Below, in pieces: positions 2,914-63,140 of a stretch of DNA of 64,000 nucleotides. The stretch is from Eledone cirrhosa. Taxonomy: Eukaryota. The translations under genes and the position numbers were made by a program. The DNA lies in contig OZ024743.1 in NCBI GenBank assembly GCA_964016885.1, forward strand, positions 239,754,001-239,818,000, given 5' to 3'. The notes under the pieces were generated by a model. That model saw nothing but the letters and a program-made list of their open reading frames with translations, was not told the DNA's origin and ran no database searches. The first letter of the stretch is position 1. Each line of letters starts with the position of its first letter.

Positions 2914-3309
<396 letters not shown>

Positions 3310-3316
3310 TTTTTTT

Positions 3317-3822
3317 AGTATATGTTGGTTGTTTACCGACACCTCAGTATGCATATTGGAGCACTCGACGAAGTACGCAGGTTGGTTTGGTTACTCCGGA
3401 GTAATGTAAAATAAAGTAATTAAGTCAAATATTTAAGATTTGGCTTCGTTTATTAAAGATGTACTGCTATATATATTTCGGTGACATCCATCATTGGCTG
3501 TGACCTCTTCAGGCAGTTCGAATTGGTGTGGTAGAGACCGGTACAGATGTTGTTAAAGTGTTTTACACATGTTGTTAAAGTGTTTTAATCATATATGATT
3601 CCAGTTCCTCAGAGAAATAACAACCCAACAAGGAGCTGGACATATCGGAGTATTGACGGAGTAAAACACTTTAACAACATGTGTACCTGTCTCTACCATA
3701 CCAATTCGAACTGCCTGAAGAGGTCACAGCCAATGATGGCTGTCACCGAAATATATATAGCAGTACATATTTAATAAACGAAGCCAAATCTTAAATATTT
3801 GACTTAATTACTTTATGTTATA
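3317..3822. mobile_element. PLE pLTR family B palindrome with an HHR on both strands
   Basis: Arms ~3405-3590 and ~3663-3820 are reverse complements. HHRs at 3463-3517 (-) and 3710-3764 (+). Confidence 0.8.
3710..3764 (+). ncRNA. minimal type I hammerhead ribozyme, family B
   Basis: actgc-CTGAAGA-GGTcACAGCCA atga TGGCTGTcACC-GAAA-TATATA-TA-gcagt. Confidence 0.85.
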
Positions 3823-4040
3823 TATATATATATATATACTTATATACGTTGCTCCAGTTTACTCAGCTGTAGAAACGTGTTGCGACGTCATGGGTGCCAA
3901 ACTGTATCGGTCATTGCCTTTACATTAGACAATATCGGTAACGTAAAGAGGGTGGTATCCACGGACATCTGCTGCCCTTCCACAAATAACCTTACTCAGT
4001 GCAAATAACCTTTCTATGTGCAAATCCCATGGTCATTTTT

Positions 4041-5154: not shown

Positions 5155-5776
5155 CATATATATATACATATATACATACGTATACATACACACACACCCA
5201 TATATATATATATAAATATATATATATATGGGTGTATCGTAGGGGGGGGGGGGGTACACGTCTATTAGAAGACAGATATCTTCTGCGAACGTGTGAAAAT
5301 ATGTATGCAAATGGCTGTGTGTTCGTTACATTTTTCAGTCTTACTCGTATATATCAGTCATATTCTCATAATAATACAATTCTCATAATAATGTGCCTGA
5401 ATATATGTGGTGGATGGTCCATTTATTAAATAAGGTTTTGCTAAGACGAATTTGAGGGGAAAGAGTTCGCCGGACATTGTAGGTCAAATAACCATAGTTT
5501 TATCTGGTACTTGTTACTTGACTGAAAGTGCATGGTTTAGTAGTTAAGGTGGGTTGTTCTCGATTGTAAGTACGTCAGACTCAAATCCAGTGCCGATTTG
5601 GATTCTTGTGCAAGACAGCTGCAAAAATAAGTTGGACTAATAATTCAAAGGGCAGCTTTTATATATATATATATATATATATAACAAAGGAATTGTGGTA
5701 AGGAACCAGATGGACCATAGCGCACCTGAGTACTCAATACTTAGGGTAGTAGAGTGGGAAATAGGAAAAAGTATGA

Positions 5777-5870
5777 CCCCGACGGCAGAGCTCAAGCCGT
5801 TTCGGCGGCTATTTCTGGACTAAATTAGAATGTTTAGCCTGGTGACTAAATAGCCGAACTTGTCAAGGGG
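5777..5870 (-). ncRNA. type I hammerhead ribozyme, family A, U3-A8 core variant
   Basis: cccc-TTGACAA-Gttcggctattt...aaatagccgcC-GAAA-CGGC ttgagctct GCCG-TC-gggg. Cleavage triplet GUC. Confidence 0.75.
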
Positions 5871-6520
5871 GTACTTCCTTATATGGGAAGATTGTAGTTG
5901 TCAAGAGGATTGGTTAAAATTTGTTGTAAACACAAATAAGTCTATCATGGCATTTGGTGGGTGGTAGAGGTGGCTGAACTTGCCTGTAGAACAATAGGGG
6001 AGTTGAGTGGAGCGGTCAAGCGTTGAAGGTGATATGTATACGGCAGATTCTAAGGATAGTGTATGAAGCGGAGGAGGGAGGTTATAGAATAGGTAAATCG
6101 AATGAGAGTAAGAGACAATAAAAGATAATAGAAAGAAATAAAAAAATATATAAAATTAGATAGTGAGAAATGAATAAAAAAAATCACAATGCTATCTTAC
6201 AATTACAGGTTAATAAGTTGAGAATAGAAAAGAATTGTAGAAATTGAGTAGTACCAGAACTGATACAGAATTAAAGGGGTTTAACACGTCTGCTATAAGT
6301 AGTTAGTAAAACGTATTCGGCCAATTCTATATTAAAATTACAGAGGTGGGGAAACTGATGCTACAGAAGCCCGATGGGCTGCATCGGGGTAGGCGAAAGG
6401 GGAAAAGCAGACGAGGAGGAAAATAGGGGGTGGAAGGAAGTGATAGTATGAGACAGGGGGGAGAAGAAGACTGGGGTTTCCCCTAACTTATTCGGCATGT
6501 GGGGGGTTATCAGCCCTTGT

Positions 6521-6740
6521 CTACCCACCCGGGTCGTTATGGGGTTTGTGGGCGAGGTAAGTCCTACGCAATCTGTGTTTGCATGCGGTTACCAGTTCGT
6601 CTTTCTTGTTTAGGAGTTTGTCCTTCGAAAACAGCATATGTAATGTTTCCTCCGAGCATAAGCTACATGGACGGCGTCTTCCCGTGTAAGAGTTAGCCCT
6701 GGACAGTAAGCTCCAAGTGAAATTGTAGGTTATATTATTA
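6521..6740 (-). pseudogene. C-terminus of PLE GIY-YIG endonuclease ORF
   Basis: [10 protein letters not shown]...CSLCSEE....[14 protein letters not shown] matches, from memory, the W-x-I..A..Y..C-x-LC..EK..LLNKR.EL...CRH C-terminal motif of Penelope-like elements. Confidence 0.7.
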
Positions 6741-6766
6741 CCTCTGCCGTCGGGGTCATACTTTTT

Positions 6767-6815
<49 letters not shown>

Positions 6816-6832
6816 GTACATACATACATATA

Positions 6833-6904
<72 letters not shown>

Positions 6905-6906
<2 letters not shown>

Positions 6907-7415
6907 GATAAATCTACCAAGAATCTACCAAGAGTTTACGGTAGTGTCCAATCCGTATGAAGAACTCAATGTATTCCGGATATCATGGAAAGAAGAGATG
7001 TAATGAAAATCCAATTTCGGTGAAAGATAAACCGGTATACAGAGTCAAGATAAAATATTAAACAAATAATGAACAAACATTCCTTATATTAAACAAAAAA
7101 AGTTCACTATTTAACGATCGTTTCTAGGGTATATATGTGCTATAATTGGTATGCATATTTAACAGATCTATGTACAAAATTATACAAAATTATACAAATT
7201 ATCAAGATTAATATACATACCTAACACATATATACGTCGTCTTCAGAAATAATCGTATTATTTCTGAAGACGGCGTATATATGTGTTAGGTATGTATATT
7301 TAATCTGATAATTTGTATAATTTTGTATAATTTTGTACATAGATCTGTTAAATATGCATACCAATTATAAGCACATATAGAACCCTAGAAACGATCGTTA
7401 AATAGTGAATCTTTT
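6905..7415. mobile_element. palindromic pLTR family D with long-helix-II HHRs on both strands
   Basis: Inverted arms 7103-7409, centred near 7255. attt-CTGAAGA-(~120 nt)-GAAA-CGATCG-TT-aaat at 7260-7403 (+) and 7109-7250 (-). Confidence 0.7.
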
Positions 7416-7810: not shown

Positions 7811-7842
7811 CTAGAACCAGATTATTATTTTTTATAAACATA

Positions 7843-7945
7843 ACCCCGCCGAGGTTAACTTTGCCTTTCATCCTTACGGGGTCGATAAAATAAAGTACCA
7901 GTAATGCACTGGGTAATTGCTGGCCTTGTGCCAATAGTAGAAACA
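7843..7945 (+). mobile_element. 5'-truncated tRNA-SINE (SINE-1) with ~19 bp TSD
   Basis: Core gccgaggttaactttgcctttcatccttacggggtcgataaa. Direct repeat attatttttt(t)ataaacata at ~7824-7842 and ~7946-7964. Confidence 0.8.
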
Positions 7946-8252
7946 ATTATTTTTTATAAACATATGTTTTTCTGTGTTTGGCTAGGGTGGGACTCAACAA
8001 GGAACAGTCAATTATATATATTTAATACTTAAAGTACAAGACAAATTAATGGGGTCTATCTATACAATTGTCTGTTCTCTGCCCCCAAAGTTGCTGATCC
8101 TATTATGTAAGAAAGGAATTATATTAGCCATACAGGTGACGAACCTCGGGAGTATATACAAATTTGAAATTGATAGCTGCTGAGGTGCCTACAAGATCTA
8201 ATTGAATGATTTAATCCTCAAGACTAAAACAGTAATTTAATAAACTACATAC

Positions 8253-12898: not shown

Positions 12899-12964
12899 TA
12901 GATAGATATATATAGATAGATAGATATATGTACATATACATATATATATATATAATTATAAATA

Positions 12965-13516
12965 CTACCAGAAAAACCACCCTTCCGTTGGTTTTCTGCT
13001 AGTAAGTGTAGTGTATATATTGATATTATACGCAAGTATATATATATACATGTAGATATGATACATCAAATAAAATTGTAATTGACAATATAAACAGAAA
13101 TTGAACGAAGACGTTGTTACACTGTCTTATGTAATCAGTAACGTAATCCATGATACGTTAAAAAAAGACGATATTATATATAAACTGCATTAGGAGAAAA
13201 TTAGTGACAGAAAATTAGTATGTTTATTTAAGTGATCGCCACCGGAAGTGTTGACATCACACACTCTCTCTTTCTATATATATGGTAGTTGAAGTGGTGG
13301 TGGTGGTGGCAACGATATACCGGAAGTACAACTTTGAAAAGTAGTCAATTTTAAATTATTTATTTTTACGAAATTATTTTTGTTTACGAAATTTAGTAGA
13401 TAAATTATGTAATATTCATTCATTATTTATTCAAATTAATCCAACTTATTTTACTAACGGGTTAAAATAAATAAACCGTACGCAGTCCCGCATACCTTCC
13501 TTTATTATAGTTTAGA
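12965..13516 (-). mobile_element. non-autonomous Helitron, copy 1
   Basis: Minus strand starts A|TCTAAACTATAATAAAG and has a subterminal hairpin aaaacca..tggttttt. The terminal CTAG is mutated to GTAG. Matches 38354-38896. Confidence 0.65.
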
Positions 13517-14264
13517 TAGTTTAGTAAATGTTTCAACTTTCATTATATCGATGGCAAATTTTCAAAACTGATGATTCCTTTTTGCTTTTGAAATTCGATT
13601 TATGATCCTAACTTAAATTAATCCATAAATTTTACACAGAGTTTAACAATATTAATGGTATCGTTTTTGTTTGTAGTCATAGGTGAAACCTGATTAATTA
13701 GGCAATTCAACCGTGAACAATTGTTCATGTTTACTGTTGTATGAAGAAAGGATTATTCTCACAGGCATACAGCATTTGAAATTTTAATTAGTAATTCATG
13801 AAAATTCCCTTGTTAGGAAGTATTTGAGCATAAGATAATGAGGAAGCCTCTATGCCGTCTCGTGACCTGCTAGAAATAGCTAACAAATCTCATCTAAATC
13901 AGATGCACTACTGCTACTGAAACAGCGTGCTTATATATACTTAAGTATTAGTATACAAAGAGAGATGAGTTCTGCTCGACTAGAGACTATACCTGGCTAA
14001 ACAACTATTCGAAGAAGACCTGCAGCATGATAAGAGTTACATCAGATAAGTTCTGATGTACTGAATGACGTACATATGAGTGTATGGACCCGTAGGGGTA
14101 TCGTAGTGACATAACCCATTTTGCTTTTAGTGGTATTTTTGGACAAGTGGAACCTATCGCTTTCCAGGTCTGAACAACATCGAAGAGAGAAAGAAAAAGA
14201 GAGAGATAGGGAGAGATAGAGATAGAGAGAGAGGGGGGGGGGCAGAGTGAAAGAGACTGATGAA

Positions 14265-21172: not shown

Positions 21173-21177
21173 CATAT

Positions 21178-21765
21178 ATTATTATACTTTGGGAGGGTCA
21201 TGTTGCCAAAAGAAACACACGCACCAGTTGCTTTCACTCCAATTTATTATAAATAAAATTTATAAATTTCCGGTTGGTTGGTTGGTTCCATAACCGGACG
21301 GTTTTTCATATATTGTCAAAGTTCTTTCGACACAGATTCTCTGACCACTTCAGTGACTGGGGATTCTTTTCTTGGTTTTGTGCCTCTCCTTTGTTCTGTC
21401 CTACGCCCTCTTGGAAAAGCCATTCCAACTCGCAGTGCTCACACAAAAACAAGATGGCGTAGGAGAGAACAAAGGAGAGGCACAAAACAAAGAAAAGAAT
21501 CCCCAGTCACTGAAGAGGTAACAGAATATATGGCGAAAGAACTTTGACAATATATGAACAACCGTCCGGTTGTGGAACCGACCAACCAACCGGAAATTTA
21601 TAAATTCTTAAATTTATAAATTTAATTTATAATAAATTGGAATGAAAGCAACTGGTGCGTGTGTTTCTATTGGCAACATGACCCTCCCAAAGTATAACAA
21701 TATCGGTTTCAACACACGTTTTCAGATAAAGAATCTTGCTAAACAAATTCAGAAACGAAATATAT
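21178..21765. mobile_element. palindromic pLTR family F with an HHR on both strands
   Basis: Arms 21178-21410 and 21455-21700 are inverted. gtca-CTGAAGW-R-stem-GAAA-GAAC-TT-tgac at 21315-21357 (-) and 21506-21548 (+). Confidence 0.75.
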
Positions 21766-26185: not shown

Positions 26186-26664
26186 GTGTGTGTGTGTAAT
26201 ATACGCTTACATACATAAATATATATATATTGTAAATATGAATATATATTGTGCTGCGTCTGGGGCGGAACCACACTGTTCATCAGCTAGATTGGACTCG
26301 ACAATCTCCCTGCATCTCTTTGCCAAACGCTTAGTATAGATTCACCGGGTAGGTTTAACAAGGAGTCGGGCCCGATCGATACACATCGAACGTTGAGCTG
26401 ATAAATCGCATCGTCCATATCATATATTTAACACCTCGTCCATATATGTAAATCACGATGGATTATATATATATATATATATATCAGGATGGATTCAGTT
26501 TAGTACTGCTTAGACAGAGTACTCGATACTTGGTGTAGTAGTTTACGGTTATACGATACAGAGACGGGACACGACGTCAGAGTACGTGCCGTTTCAACAG
26601 ATAGTTCCATACAAGCTGCTGAGACCGCAAAGAGACAAACCTCGGGGCCTGACTAATGATAATA

Positions 26665-26850
26665 ATTGTTTCTACTTTAGGCACAAGGCCAGCAATTACC
26701 CAGTGCTTTACTTGTACTTTATTTTATCGACCCCGTAAGGATGAAAGGTAAAGTCAACATCGGCTGGATTTCAACTCAGATCGTAAAGGGACGTAACTAT
26801 GCTGGAAAGCATGGCGTCCGACCCTCTACCAATACTGCCAATCCACTGTC
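26665..26850 (-). mobile_element. SINE-1 copy
   Basis: Same core as 7843, plus the tRNA-like head. Confidence 0.8.
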
Positions 26851-27952: not shown

Positions 27953-28417
<465 letters not shown>

Positions 28418-28424
<7 letters not shown>

Positions 28425-28886
28425 AAGTTATATTTAAAATTGTTGGGTTACAACTAGTAAATATTTATAACTGATATAAAAGCACTCGACAAATATTTGG
28501 AGTATATTTACAATATTAAATATTAAATAAATGGAAAACTATATTTATAAAACCATATTTATTTCATTATATATATTTCGGGGATATCATATTAACAATA
28601 TGTTATGCCTTCATCAGACAAAATACAATATAAACAGTTTTATAGATAAATATATTCGACATACCGTAATAAACATCAACTTCATTTGAAGAGGTTTACT
28701 CTGCTAGAGTAAACCTCTTCAAATGAAGTTGATGTTTATTACGGTATGTCGAATATATTTATCTATAAAACTGTTTATATTGTATTTTGTCTGATGAAGG
28801 CATAACATATTGTTAATATGATATCCCCGAAATATATATAATGAAATAAATATGGTTTTATAAATATAGTTTTCCATTTATTTAAT

Positions 28887-28890
<4 letters not shown>
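28418..28890. mobile_element. pLTR family C palindrome with HHRs 28560-28625 (-) and 28783-28848 (+)
   Basis: Near-perfect inverted arms of ~185 bp centred near 28704, plus a tail. Flanked by (TA)n. Confidence 0.85.
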
Positions 28891-28960
<70 letters not shown>

Positions 28961-29019
28961 CACACACACACATATATATATATATGCATATATATATATA
29001 TACATACATATTTATATAA

Positions 29020-32988: not shown

Positions 32989-33257
32989 TTAATCTGTTAT
33001 TTTAATAAATATATATATATATATATATTCTTTCGTTACTTTCGTATTGTGTGGTTGGGTTTTGCCTACCGCAATTTTCAATTTGTCAAGCTATTTAAAC
33101 GTATGTTATTACTCTGAGGACCTACCCTTATTGAGTGCTTTGCTACTTATTCCTTATTGTAAGTCGACTTTGCTTGGCCACAGCCAAAGTTTCGATTTTA
33201 CTAAGATTCCACTTATATATGTATATATATATATATAGAAAGATTATTATTTCATAC

Positions 33258-33371
33258 TGAGTTCAAATCCCGCCGAGGTTAACTTTGCTTTTCATCCTTA
33301 CGGGGTCGATAAAATAAAGTACCAGTAATGTACTGGTTATTTACTGGCCTTGTGCCTAAAGTAGAAACAAT

Positions 33372-33372
<1 letters not shown>
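33258..33372 (+). mobile_element. SINE-1 fragment from the B-box to the 3' end
   Basis: gagttcaaatcccgccgaggttaacttt... Confidence 0.8.
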
Positions 33373-33445
<73 letters not shown>

Positions 33446-33466
33446 ATTAAGAAAGAATATTATTTC

Positions 33467-33775: not shown

Positions 33776-33852
<77 letters not shown>

Positions 33853-33857
<5 letters not shown>

Positions 33858-34476
33858 TAAGTATGTACACGTACATACATATATGTATACCGACGTACAG
33901 TAGTATGTATATATATATATACATACATGCACATATATATATATGCACGTATGGATTCACCGAACATTTATTATAATGCTCGGTGTGTTTGTAAACAAAC
34001 ATCCCGTATTAAGCCGTAGTGTCTAGCAACCACCGTTGCTCGTTTGTTCAACACTGACAAAGGAACGCTGTACTAGTTTCAAGCTTGTTCGCTATCGTCA
34101 GCAACGTATACCTTCCTGCCAGATTGTTGAACGTATATACTTACCTTATGCATATTAACGGCTGAGTAGCCCAATATACATAAGGTAAGTATATACGTTC
34201 AACAATCTGGCAGGAAGGTATACGTTGCTGACGATAGCTAACAAGCTTGAAACTAGTACAGTGTTCCTTTGTCAGTGTTGAACAAACGAGCAATGGTGGT
34301 TGCTAGACACTACGGCTTAATACGGGATGTTTGTTTACAAACACACCGAGCATTATAATAAATGTTCGGTGAATCCATACGTGCATATATATATGTGTGC
34401 ATGTATGTATATATATATATACATACTACTGTACGTCGGTATACATATATGTATGTACGTGTACATACTTATATTT
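33853..34476. mobile_element. 620 bp palindrome, family K, with HHRs 34065-34107 (-) and 34222-34264 (+)
   Basis: acgttg-CTGACGA-T-AGC taacaa GCT-T-GAAA-CTAG-TA-cagtgt. Arms are ~300 bp and nearly perfect. Confidence 0.85.
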
Positions 34477-34809
34477 AAGTAACAGCCGTACTAAGAGTGG
34501 GAAATGAAATATCGTTTCATTTTTTCCGTTTATATATATATATATATATAAATGAAGAATGGCGTGCTGCGTTGTTGCGAATATGAACATATGAATAAAA
34601 ATAGACAAGGGGTAAAATTTCCTCTTCAGTAATCTGCTGATTATCGTTGGTATTCGACGCATTAAAGACTAGTCTTTAATGCGTCGAAATAACAACGATA
34701 ATCAGCAGACTACTGAAGAGGACATCTATTTTTATTCATATATATATATATATATATATACATACATATATATATATATTTATATATATATATATGTATA
34801 TATTTATAT

Positions 34810-38149: not shown

Positions 38150-38152
<3 letters not shown>

Positions 38153-38316
38153 GGAACCAGTAAGACCCCGACGGCTGAGCTCAGAATTAGCCGTCGAAAC
38201 GGCTTGAGCTCAGCCGTCGGGGTCTTACTGGTTCCTATTACCCACTCTACTACCCTAAGTATTGAGTACTTTGGTGCGTTATGGTCCACCTGGTTCCTTA
38301 CCACATTTCCTTCGTT
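38150..38316. mobile_element. pLTR family A short palindrome plus tail
   Basis: Same sequence family as 3021-3215. Confidence 0.8.
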
Positions 38317-38353
38317 ATATATATACATATACATATATATATAATTATACATA

Positions 38354-38896
38354 CTAGCAGAAAAACCACCCTTCCGTTGGTTTTCTGCTAGCATGTGTAG
38401 TGTATATATTGATATTATACGCAAGTATATATACATGTAGATATGATACATCAAATAAAATCGTAATTGACAATATAAACAGAAATTGAACGAAGACGTT
38501 GTTACACTGTCTTATGTAATCAGTAACGTAATCCATGATACATTAAAAAAAGACGATATTATATATATCCTGCATTAGGAGAAAATTAGTGACAGAAAAT
38601 TAGTATGTTTATTTAAGTGATCGCCACCGGAAGTGTTGATATCACACACTCTCTCTTTCTATATATATGGTAGTTGAAGTGGTGGTGGTGGCAACGATAT
38701 ACCCGAAGTACAACTTTGAAAAGAAGTCAATTTTAAATTATTTATTTTTACGAAATTGTTTTTGTTTACGAAATTTAGTAGATAAATTATGTAATATTCA
38801 TTCATTATTTATTCAAAGTAATCCAACTTATTTTACTAACGCGATAAAAAAAAAACCATACGCAGTCCCGCAGACCTTCCTTTATTATAGTTTAGA
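38354..38896 (-). mobile_element. non-autonomous Helitron, copy 2
   Basis: Minus strand A|TC...hairpin...CTAG|T gives canonical Helitron termini and an A/T target. Confidence 0.7.
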
Positions 38897-40365
38897 TGTA
38901 CATATATATATACACATATATATGAATGTATAATTATACTTATAAAAAAATATATATATATATATATACACAAATGCACGCACGTACGCACGCACACACA
39001 CATACGCACACACGCACGCACTCACACATACATATATATGTATGTATGTATATATGTACCGACATTTGCTAGTGTCTCATCACTATCTCTCTTCCCACCT
39101 AAATGTTACACAAAAGGTTAAGCCCAGATGGAAAAAAACAGAATACATTGCTGGCACCCTAAGCTATACGAGGTTTGGATGGATTTTGCTAAAGAATTGC
39201 GCCAGAACCTCTCACAGGGATTGAATACATATGACTAAGTTTGAAACTGCAGAATTATTGGTGTTTTATGGTAATTATGGTTACTGATGGTGTTGCAGTG
39301 ACTATTCATGTTTGTAGATTTTGTTGTTCTTGTATATTTCATCAGGTGAACCCCTGTTCTCAAAGATTGGATCAGATGCGATGAAACTGCGATCATCTTG
39401 TCTTTTAGTAAACATAGTGTATTGAGAATGACATTGTCCTCTATGGTCTCTCTTTATATTTAGATTGTATAGTTGGCTGTTATATCTTGGAGAGTGACCA
39501 TCTACTGACTCAATTGTTTTCGAAATATTTTAGTTGCTGTTGCTCTACTTTAAGCCGAACGATAACTGTTATAGAGCAAACGTACTTATGACCAAAAGTA
39601 ATCCACTTTTTTATTCTGACAATGTCTCGTATGTCTTTACATTTTTTGAAGAGGGCAATATGTTGATATTTTATGGGTTGAGGCACAATGTATATGCTGA
39701 TGTTACTTAAACTGTTTTAAAGGTCATCTCTGTTTAATTAATATTTCGTTGATATACTACTGAAATATATACCATACACATGGATCTACATATCTAGAAT
39801 TGGAAATCGAAATCATGTCACTATTTCATCTGTTCAAGATATTTAGATATCGCTAGGGCAGCAATAGTTACTGGTGATTTCAAACGTGTTTGTGTAAAAT
39901 TCCGTCGGTTCCAACGATGAGTGTTCCGATTGTATCCTTAATATAGTTCTCAATGAGATTCAGTGTGGCTCTTTGAATCAGAGGTAGAGCTCATTTTTGC
40001 CAGCTGGGTAGATAGGAGCACCGCAAATGTACCTATCTTCTAAAGTAAACACACCGTCAGAATCGAAATCAAGATTTAAAAGCAGGTACACACGGACACA
40101 TGTTTCAGAGGTAGAAGCATAATCCATAGAAGAGACCCCAGTAGTTGTTTAAACATTTTAACCCTTTATCAACACCTTACAGGGAAAGTGAACCAGGGCA
40201 ATATTAGAGTCAGGATATAAAGAGACGCGTCTAAATACGGTGAAGCAATTTACTTGACGTATCTTGCTAAAAATGTTGTCCGTAAATGATTTATTGAATA
40301 TGAATTTTATCAATAAAGCTCATATTAAACATCTCATTTTCAAATCTCTTAGAATGCATTATGTG

Positions 40366-40859: not shown

Positions 40860-42365
<1,506 letters not shown>

Positions 42366-42949: not shown

Positions 42950-44620
42950 TGTATAGTATTGTTGAAAATGTATAGTACAGTATTACTGTTGTAAATATAT
43001 AGTACGGTATTACTGTTGAAAATGTATAGTACAGTATTACTGTTGTAAATATATAGTACGGTATTACTGTTGTAAATATATAGTACAGTATTACTATTAT
43101 AAATATATAGTACGGTATTACTGTTGTAAATATATAGTACAGTATTACTGTTGTAAATATATAGTACGGTATTACTGTTGTAAATATATAGTACGGTATT
43201 ACTGTTGTAAATATATAGTACAGTATTACTGTTGTAAATATATAGTACAGTATTACTATTGTAAATATATAGTACGGTATTACTGTTGTAAATATATAGT
43301 ACGGTATTACTGTTGTAAATATATAGTACAGTATTACTGTTGTAAATATATAGTACAGTATTACTATTGTAAATATATAGTACGGTATTACTGTTGTAAA
43401 TATATAGTACAGTATTACTGTTGTAAATATATAGTACGGTATTACTGTTGTAAATATATAGTACAGTATTACTGTTGTAAATATATAGTACAGTATTACT
43501 ATCGTAAATATATAGTACGGTATTACTGTTGTAAATATATAGTACGGTATTACTGTTGTAAATATATAGTACGGTATTACTGTTGTAAATATATAGTACG
43601 GTATTACTGTTGTAAATATATAGTACAGTATTACTGTTGTAAATATATAGTACAGTATTACTGTTGTAAATATATAGTACGGTATTACTGTTGTAAATAT
43701 ATAGTACGGTATTACTGTTGTAAATATATAGTACAGTATTACTGTTGTAAATATATAGTACAGTATTACTGTTGTAAATATATAGTACAGTATTACTGTT
43801 GTAAATATATAGTACAGTATTACTGTTGTAAATATATAGTACAGTATTACTATTGTAAATATATAGTACGGTATTACTGTTGTAAATATATAGTACAGTA
43901 TTACTGTTGTAAATATATAGTATAGTATTACTGTTGTAAATATATAGTACAGTATTACTATTGTAAATATATAGTACGGTATTACTGTTGTAAATATATA
44001 GTACGGTATTACTGTTGTAAATATATAGTACAGTATTACTGTTGTAAATATATAGTACAGTATTACTATTGTAAATATATAGTACGGTGTTACTGTTGTA
44101 AATATATAGTACAGTATTACTGTTGTAAATATGTAGTACGGTATTACTGTTGTAAATATATAGTACGGTATTACTGTTGTAAATATATAGTACGGTATTA
44201 ATGTTGTAAATATGTAGTACGGTATTACTGTTGTAAATATGTAGTACAGTATTACTGTTGTAAATATATAGTACGGTATTACTGTTGTAAATATATAGTA
44301 CGGTATTACTGTTGTTAATATATAGTACAGTATTACTGTTGTAAATATATAGTACAGTATTACTGTTGTAAATATATAGTACAGTATTACTGTTGTAAAT
44401 ATATAGTACGGTATTACTGTTGTAAATATATAGTACGGTATTACTGTTGTAAATATATAGTACAGTATTACTGTTGTAAATATATAGTACAGTATTACTG
44501 TTGTAAATATATAGTACAGTATTACTGTTGTAAATATATAGTACAGTATTACTGTTGTAAATATATAGTACGGTATTACTGTTGTAAATATGTAGTACAG
44601 TATTTCTGTTGTAAATACGT
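42950..44620. repeat. 27-bp minisatellite, about 60 copies (GTATTACTGTTGTAAATATATAGTACR)
   Basis: Direct tandem units with an A/G dimorphism. Confidence 0.95.
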
Positions 44621-44999: not shown

Positions 45000-45335
<336 letters not shown>

Positions 45336-46071: not shown

Positions 46072-46222
<151 letters not shown>

Positions 46223-46223
46223 G

Positions 46224-46260
<37 letters not shown>

Positions 46261-46299
46261 TATATAAATATTAAATGCGAATGCCTGTAATATAAAATA

Positions 46300-46470
46300 T
46301 GTGTTTCTACTTTAGACACAAGGTCAGCAACTACCCACTGCATTACTGGTGCTTTATTATATCGACCGCGTAAGGAAGAAAGGCAAAGTCAACCTCAGCG
46401 GGATTTGAACTCAGATCGTAAAGGGACGTAACTATGCTGCAAAAGCATGGCGTCCGACCCTCTACCGATT
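46300..46470 (-). mobile_element. SINE-1 copy
   Basis: Same core, with B-box reverse complement ggatttgaactc. Confidence 0.8.
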
Positions 46471-50179: not shown

Positions 50180-50264
50180 CATACATATATATATATATAA
50201 ATATATTATGCGTGTGTCTGTGTGGTTAACACTGGTTTCTAATTTTGGCACAAGGCAATTAGTA

Positions 50265-50410
50265 TTGTTTCTACTTTTGGCACAAGGCCAGCAATTATCC
50301 CAGTGTATTACTGGTACTTTATTTTATCGACCCCGTAAGGATGAAAAGCAAAGTTAACCTCGGCGGGATTTGAACTCAGTCCGTAAAGGGACGTAACTGT
50401 GCTGCAAAGC
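50265..50410 (-). mobile_element. SINE-1 copy
   Basis: Same core and B-box. Confidence 0.8.
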
Positions 50411-50595
50411 AATTAATATTGCTAAATTCTCTGTCGATTAATGACTTTCCACTGTGGTTTACAAATGATAATTTACGCACAAAATTATATAAACAAGCAC
50501 ACACATACACATGTAAATAGCTATGTGGTCAAATAATAACCATTGATACCCAATATATTTATTCATTTATATGTGTGTGTCTTTCTGTGTGCGTG

Positions 50596-53569: not shown

Positions 53570-53860
53570 ATGTATAAGTAAAAAAGATGAGATCGAAAAT
53601 GCAACTTAGTCTTTTTTCTTTTTTAAATATATATTTATTTGGTTCCTTTACCGGTTTCGCAGTTCTTGTGCTTTTCAAAAGTATAGTTGAGATGGGGGAT
53701 CTGTTTAGCCGCAGACCCTCCATCTCCACTCTACTTTTGAAAGGCAGAAGAACTGCGAAACCGGTAAAGGAACCAAATAAATATATATATATTTTTTAAA
53801 ATAAGACTCCAGTTGCATTTTCGATTTCAACTTTTTTCCTTATACTTTCATTCGTGTAAA
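53570..53860. mobile_element. diverged palindrome family L with U3-A8-type HHR motifs
   Basis: ctt-TTGAAAR-GCA(G/C)..CTGC-GAAA-CCGG-TA-aag at 53646-53681 (-) and 53734-53770 (+). Confidence 0.6.
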
Positions 53861-54734: not shown

Positions 54735-54767
<33 letters not shown>

Positions 54768-54772
<5 letters not shown>

Positions 54773-55097
54773 ATTATGTAATAAACAACATAAGGCAATT
54801 ATTCCATTTACCAGTGGTTTCTTAAAAGCAAAAGGTTTTGCTTTCAATCCTCAGAATGAAAAATCCTGGTTTGTTTATTGAATATGGATTCTAAAAAGGT
54901 TTTTAGAATCCATATTCAATAAACAAACCAGGATTTTTCATTCTGAGGATTGAAAGCAAAACCTTTTGCTTTTAAGAAACCACTGGTAAATGGAATAATT
55001 GCCTTATGTTGTTTATTACATAATAATAATAATTAAGCTCTGTTGCTTACATAGAGCACTCTTTTTTCCTGGACTTTTCCGATGGAATTACTTCATT

Positions 55098-56312: not shown

Positions 56313-56762
<450 letters not shown>

Positions 56763-62866: not shown

Positions 62867-62946
<80 letters not shown>

Positions 62947-62948
<2 letters not shown>

Positions 62949-63135
62949 CGAAGGAGATGTGGTAAGAAACAAGATGAATGATAACGCACTAGAGTACTCG
63001 ATACTTAGGGTAGTAGAGTGGGTAATAGGAAAAAGTTTTACCCCGACGGCAGAGCTCAAGCGTTTCGGCGGCCATTTCTGAACCAGAAATAACCGTCGAA
63101 ACGGCTTGAGCTCTGCCGTCGGGGTTAAACATTTT

Positions 63136-63140
<5 letters not shown>
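62947..63140. mobile_element. pLTR family A palindrome plus tail
   Basis: Centre near 63081. Flanked by (TA)n. Confidence 0.8.

Follow-up and report, generated by a model that had tools for sequence, protein, structure and literature searches.

Penelope-like elements (PLEs) occur with tandem and inverted ends, the origin of which has been named as open (PMC8557442). According to the accessible parts of that paper, the Hydra clade of EN+ PLEs is marked by RW(R/K) and DKT motifs, a CxCx5C linker, and CxxC and CxH motifs flanking E and N in a C-terminal GIY-YIG-type domain without CCHH, and its members show (TA)n insertion, a hammerhead near the 3′ end, and tandem or inverted structures with a tail at one end. 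The other sources are likewise cited from their accessible parts. For PAc, the Poseidon element of Anolis, in vitro work placed the tail between two internal reverse transcriptase (RT) start sites, with both target strands cut and extended (PMC11167929). Transcription starts inside the pLTR in Penelope of Drosophila virilis, in which tandem copies are flanked by inverted repeats of variable size (PMC2377424), and also in Chlamys-3 (PMC8557442). The Cercyon PLEs of Schistosoma carry hammerheads with the U3-A8 core, a known PLE variant, as opposite-strand motif pairs 100–700 bp apart, and a circular-RNA model was proposed for their tandem copies (PMC4209133). Hydra is not mentioned in the accessible part of PMC13282606, and the subject of 10.64898/2026.07.22.740005, as far as accessible, is tandem retrozymes.

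Here, we describe a family (family A) from Eledone cirrhosa that shares the above motifs, (TA)n insertion, and tandem and inverted structures of the Hydra clade, has a predicted hammerhead near the 3′ end, and was encountered in a 64,000-nt stretch of contig OZ024743.1 (GCA_964016885.1, positions 239,754,001 to 239,818,000; hereafter the window). The copy at 5682–6771 consists of 1,060 nt of element sequence followed by an inverted arm of 29–30 nt, with (TA)n on either side. Element numbering starts at the long end (position 1 = window 5682), and the element sense strand is the minus strand at this site. The features of this copy are as follows:

5660–5681, no strand: (TA)n target, left flank, from the sequence.
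5682–5760, minus strand: 79-nt ‘tail’ between the long end (5682) and the short end (5761), from arm-end counts, (AT)n contig ends, and analogy with PAc (PMC11167929, in part).
5776–5872, minus strand: predicted type I hammerhead ribozyme, from a motif search.
5821, minus strand: position 140, the A of TTAGTC and the modal stop of family arms, from arm-stop counts; putative capped transcription start.
5822–6520, minus strand: 3′ UTR of this copy’s subfamily, including the 5′ half of the hammerhead, from collinearity with longer copies.
6521–6739, minus strand: end of the RT-endonuclease ORF, comprising 72 codons and the stop, with CxxC, E, LLNK, and CxH; 88% identical to the 717-aa ORF of locus L201.
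6741–6742, no strand: near-blunt inversion junction, from comparison with L026, L033, and L038.
6742–6771, plus strand: inverted short arm, corresponding to element positions 109–80, 100% identical to 5790–5761.
6770–6903, no strand: (TA)n-rich right flank, from the sequence.

The minus-strand frame at 6739–6521 translates to 72 aa and a stop, with the motifs CSLC, E, LLNK, and CKH, and the adjoining 5822–6520 is collinear at 87–89% with the longer copies L026, L031, L033, and L038. An earlier sequence-only reading of the window had described a family A copy running about 1 kb into an ORF end with a CxxC...LLNK..EL...CKH motif, which this frame bears out; the inverted arm that it gave as 28 bp is present, at 29–30 nt. 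Its link to a Penelope GIY-YIG ORF holds in part, as the C-terminal end of the endonuclease is found here, whereas the VIY...YIG motif was seen only in longer copies at other genomic sites.

A search with the 72-aa peptide gave 46,659 first-look candidates in the genome (G000), 150 of which were scored, at 86–100% identity. Twenty loci picked for long frames contained ORFs of up to 704 aa, and whole units obtained from a leader search measured 3,528–3,546 nt (about 3.53 kb), with an intact 717–719-aa ORF in seven of nine units from five arrays. The full-length element is thus described from natural copies rather than from an assembled consensus, and these carry a 717-aa ORF with both the RT and the GIY-YIG motif sets, the two parts that the earlier reading had named for a full-length family A consensus. 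The unit holds only this one long ORF, with the other frames reaching 115–146 aa from stop to stop; a DDE transposase, which the same reading had named as the contrary finding, was not seen in these long units, which encode the RT-endonuclease.

The family protein contains the motifs RWR (as RLRWR, where most of 20 other full-length homologues aligned have RWK), DKT (HSDKTG), YRDD, and CxCx5C (CNCPDRSIC), followed by the endonuclease motifs VIY..YIG, R, H, E, N, and CNLC..E..LLNK..CKH, with a single C between VIY and YIG and no CCHH. Among 7,994 scored candidates, 803 were homologous at E ≤ 1e-20, mostly with 37–43% identity. The endonuclease pattern aligns with homologues, and by eye the protein motifs match the Hydra rows of Fig. 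S7 in PMC8557442. The predicted structure of the protein (pLDDT 87.5) gave telomerase as the top fold match (E 3e-8 in one search; Z 18.0, rmsd 4.2, 295 aligned in a full-model search, a kind that covered residues 1–480), and the endonuclease domain modelled alone from a single sequence had an unusable fold (pLDDT 36). Pfam, run on the 72-aa peptide, on two of the long ORFs, and on an aligned set of 23 proteins, returned no meaningful match; nor did NCBIfam and PHROGs for four proteins each, and a sequence search of solved structures gave no match.

On these protein motifs, compared by eye with named Hydra sequences, we have filed family A under the Hydra clade of EN+ PLEs, so the earlier ‘Penelope’ label stands in the sense of a Penelope-like element and not for the Penelope/Poseidon clade. 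Family A also has a pLTR, and its tandem and inverted arrangements carry a tail on one side. Relative to the accessible description of the Hydra clade in PMC8557442, the unit is longer (3.53 kb against ‘generally <3 kb’, a descriptive trait), the tail is longer (79 nt against 30–40 nt), the predicted hammerhead has a U3-A8 core with a long stem II where canonical cores are given, and the stop pile-up and cap mark discussed below are not reported there. By eye, family A is clearly distinct from Hydra-1_Obim in both hammerhead and protein.

A BLAST search of the window with 5682–6770 recovered the terminal sequence at all six palindromes named in the sequence-only reading, the long arms being 84–90% identical to the query (E down to 1e-65). 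In every case, one arm comes from the 5682 end and a second, inverted arm terminates at the equivalent of 5761, as follows (no strand is assigned):

2668–2816: family palindrome, the long arm reaching 91 and the short arm running from 141.
3020–3215: family palindrome, arms 134 and 144.
28060–28361: family palindrome, arms 197 and 209, both of which include the complete hammerhead motif.
38150–38317: family palindrome, arms 136 and 113.
45102–45295: family palindrome, arms 140 and 138.
62946–63140: family palindrome, arms 139 and 137.

The same two outer ends recur throughout the family, from 137-nt copies up to multi-unit arrays. In a random sample combined with the window (n = 79), 33 arm ends fell at positions 1–5 and 32 at 78–86, and TA runs adjoined 59 of these 65 ends (33/33 long and 26/32 short), compared with a background of 5%; 47-nt matches to L034:722–770, which belong to another repeat, were removed prior to counting. 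Loose (AT)n ends at the equivalent of 5761 were also present in contigs of two public runs from one study, the source of which is possibly that of the assembly. Of 73 typed short pairs, 68 have the tail on one arm and not the other (55 of 58 when tail-selected loci are excluded), and both arms belong to the same subfamily in all 73, where 33% would be expected at random. By analogy with PAc (PMC11167929, in part), the two fixed ends bounding the tail would be RT start sites.

A self-propagating MITE-like family, whether a DNA element with terminal inverted repeats (TIRs) or a fixed palindromic master, would share the near-uniform length of about 195 nt, the inverted repeats, and the TA flanks seen here, but we give this reading almost no credence. 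The inverted repeats are not terminal at both ends, given the 79-nt overhang on a single arm, and the same two-end geometry is found in five subfamily types, in a continuous series leading to ORF-bearing copies. Moreover, the junctions of 46 long-short pairs (16 random, 23 tail-selected, and 7 from the window) differ from one another at the level of single bases, some joins being blunt, some showing microhomology, and some containing added bases, rather than repeating the uniform interior of a master, and no partner DDE transposase or second ORF of transposase size was seen in the unit, its sole long ORF being the RT-EN. Palindrome ends merge with (TA)n, so any target-site duplication would blend into the flank. 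The ORF-bearing copies without transposase, the 79-nt overhang, and the varied junctions support the proposal made from the window that the palindromes are truncated, inverted PLE insertions and not TIR MITEs; that family A is a PLE in origin is, in our view, virtually certain.

The pLTR contains a predicted type I hammerhead with a U3-A8 core, for which self-cleavage is also a prediction. The motif, at element positions 191–95, comprises ACCCC, UUGANAA, a long stem II, GAAAC, a 5-bp stem III, GUC, and GGGGU; in the window copy, stem I pairs 5872–5867 with 5780–5776, the U3-A8 core occupies 5866–5860, and the predicted GUC cut follows 5781 (element position 100). Across 84 copies, positions 4–6, 8, 9, and 10.1 are each conserved in at least 81, position 7 varies, and position 3 is U (U3-A8) in 68 and C opposite A8 in 13. 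Rfam returned only microsatellite-driven miRNA noise and no hammerhead match for six loci, and the predicted hammerhead is not the minimum-energy fold, a competing hairpin winning (z −1.4 and −2.3). No clear stop peak was seen at the predicted cut among the arm stops, in which the arms are too few. The U3-A8 core and the pairs of motifs in opposite orientation are shared with Cercyon; the 5-bp helix III with its palindromic loop differs from the minimal Cercyon hammerheads, which are described without helix III in the accessible part of PMC4209133. If the RNA starts at position 140, no more than the 3′ half of the motif would be included, and so such a leader would not self-cleave.

The inner ends of the arms do not fall at random. 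In a sample of 96 arms not chosen by inner end, 55 stop at positions 134–147, with a mode of 140, so the earlier description of the palindromes as 5′-truncated is right in that the copies are cut short and wrong if truncation at random is meant. Genome-wide, an exact 31-mer reaching position 137 occurs 32,073 times (reversed control, 0), exact arms reaching 140 occur 21,897 times (followed by the templated T 13,489 times and by G 4,142 times), and arms reaching 146 occur 5,059 times, counting the two main variants only. There are 810 sites at which the two arms both extend to 140 and are separated by no more than three bases. In a hand tally of the first 50 of these, the centres were a single C/G at 23 and a single A/T at 2 (i.e., C/G in 23 of 25 single-base centres), none at 8, CG at 2, CT and TT at 1 each, CWG at 11, and other triples at 2; the CG and CWG centres indicate that each arm carries a C. 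The C is also enriched at this stop, following 10 of 16 stops at 140 compared with 15 of 86 stops elsewhere (Fisher p 0.0005). Of 30 arms with G at 141, none runs on into element sequence, and G occupies 141 in only 2 of 83 continuing arms.

These data also bear on a snap-back process, in which a single cDNA from the long end would fold back and be copied as far as the short end. Such a process would account for arms of matching subfamily (73/73) and for a tail restricted to one arm (68/73). However, the short arm extends beyond the depth of the long arm by 10 nt or more in 13 of 46 pairs; it thus holds sequence that the long arm lacks and was not copied from the long arm there. The extra base is, moreover, found equally on either arm (long arm 9, short arm 12; n = 21), which also argues against a fixed master junction, and a C on both arms does not fit a single folded cDNA. 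We therefore regard snap-back as highly improbable.

In L1, an untemplated 5′ G has been read as a copied cap (PMC9341517, in part). Taken with this mark and with the pLTR-internal starts of Penelope and Chlamys-3, the stop pile-up and the extra C suggest that position 140 is likely the capped start of the element RNA. Against this, the stops are spread over 14 positions (134–147), T follows in 13,489 of the 21,897 arms, and the G might derive from the opposite arm in 11 of the 30 G-at-141 arms. The upstream pLTRs of 30 leader-bearing loci also range from 45 nt to >1,500 nt with no pile-up at 140 (one of 30 ends at 143), and a second class of template, without an end at 140, must thus be assumed for long products. 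Terminal-transferase addition of C, wherever a template ends, could also pass for a cap mark.

Retaining a PLE origin, one could instead explain position 140 as a strong RT pause at an RNA structure or bound protein in hammerhead stem II, with the extra C an ordinary terminal addition. Position 140 does lie within the predicted upper stem II, and the scatter of stops over 134–147 would suit a pause. The upper stem is, however, AT-rich and weaker than the stems already traversed, C is far commoner after stops at 140 than after other stops, and a fixed structural pause would also be expected to leave a second pile-up at 140 in ORF-reaching copies, where none is seen. We consider such a pause unlikely, and prefer a capped start.

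With regard to a promoter, the sequence TTAGTC at 140 may be read as Inr-like, and the subfamily variants TCAGT and TGAGT occur at position 141 in L247, L248, and L196, the former presumably a textbook initiator. No match to a DPE was seen by eye in family A, whereas D. virilis Penelope has a DPE, a 34-bp repeat, and an intron (PMC2377424, in part). In one subfamily (L027:3975–4001), the tail end followed by TCTAG resembles a splice acceptor (pyrimidine tract and AG). Inverted truncated copies with a tail are already known; the combination of a base-precise stop with a cap-like C or a strong-stop promoter was not found in the open-access literature searched, nor were palindromic MITE-like PLE derivatives, although absence in print is unproven for both.

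We consider it probable that the palindromes arise by twin priming and run-off at the capped 5′ end of the RNA. A cut would be made within a (TA)n target, and reverse transcription would be primed from both sides of the break, each side using a different one of two start sites that lie 79 nt apart in the RNA leader. For most short arms, synthesis would run off the RNA at its capped 5′ end, which lies 140 nt from the long end, with the cap copied as the extra C, and the two cDNA arms would then be joined head to head. The window copy at 5682–6771 would be a mixed product, in which one arm extended 1,060 nt into the ORF and the other halted after 30 nt. Long copies and tandem arrays would come from templates without an end at 140, such as a 3′ pLTR, read-through RNA, or hammerhead-processed circular RNA.

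Twin priming is the process by which LINE-1 elements acquire 5′ inversions, through priming on the second strand. LINE-1 primes at the poly(A) 3′ end with an internal and variable second primer, whereas both starts are fixed in family A; the likeness lies in the 5′ inversion and in the extra G read as a copied cap (PMC9341517, in part). The arrangement is also similar to that of PAc, in which two internal RT starts bound the tail, both target strands are cut and extended, and the hammerhead cut lies about 90–100 nt upstream of the far start site; the start sites are within the ORF in PAc and at least 92 nt upstream of the ATG in family A, and neither short palindromes nor run-off at a capped 5′ end are discussed in the accessible part of PMC11167929.

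Family A is abundant. We sampled ten large contigs at 100 evenly spaced stretches of 10 kb each and counted 42 end-bearing clusters (about 42 sites per Mb), and family matches covered 17,785 of 999,951 sampled bases (about 1.8%), which extrapolates to roughly 100,000 sites and 1.8% of the genome. A DNA search with the tail of a second subfamily gave no matches, likely because common words were skipped. The arrays at L201–L204 (G000:C1) contain at least 4.6 head-to-tail units with intact 717–719-aa ORFs, the units differing by 0–1 nt in one array and 2–7 nt in the other. These arrays are very young and fit rolling-circle or concatemer copying, the near-identity of the tandem units fitting an RNA that is circular or concatemeric, as put forward in PMC4209133 (in part). 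In L203, where array C1b starts, a 55-nt segment from within the ORF (unit 1615–1672) is repeated in tandem about 50 times at the 5′ truncation point, possibly through recurrent RT slippage or as a minisatellite born from the element. In L211, L213, L215, and L183, a sample selected for the leader, arms stop (three near 134–140 and one at 1147) and resume at unit ~150–230 just inside the ORF, which could reflect template jumps onto short leader RNAs.

More tentatively, and at somewhat less than an even chance, the stubs that exist by the tens of thousands may be viewed as PLE strong-stop DNA. A single RNP would prime both (TA)n break ends at two fixed sites in the capped leader RNA, each stub would record the transcription start and cap, and the 40-nt redundancy between positions 140 and 100, or a circular monomer, would lead to full units and arrays. 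As each stub would begin at the start site, stubs may themselves be transcribed and re-mobilised as mini-PLEs; some may stem from re-mobilisation as RNA by the PLE enzyme.

The window holds other repeats besides family A. Self-inverted stretches unrelated to it by BLAST lie at 3404–3823, 7098–7415, 21176–21703, 28371–29018, 33852–34477, 41524–42173, 53572–53845, 54766–55031, and 56354–56588; these may include stubs from further PLE families, and that at 7098–7415 has a CTGAAGA hammerhead-like half near its centre. A dispersed repeat ending in GTCGATAAAATAAGTACCAGT, which we take to be SINE-like, is found at 7842–7957, 26661–26833, 33257–33448, 46221–46469, and 50264–50411, and is also inserted in L034. 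A 27-nt minisatellite (61 copies, 95% matches) spans 42960–44617, and 12924–13517 and 38317–38897 form a 594-nt direct duplicate (94% identical), one copy of which adjoins the 38150 palindrome.

Because Pfam and Rfam miss family A, about 1.8% of the sampled DNA would be mislabelled as MITE or left unclassified. The family gives base-level predictions, namely a start at 140, a cap-derived C, two start sites, and a hammerhead cut at 100, which, together with its young intact copies, make PLE end formation testable in vitro. If true, a capped start at position 140 would explain the mirror-image ends of this class of elements.
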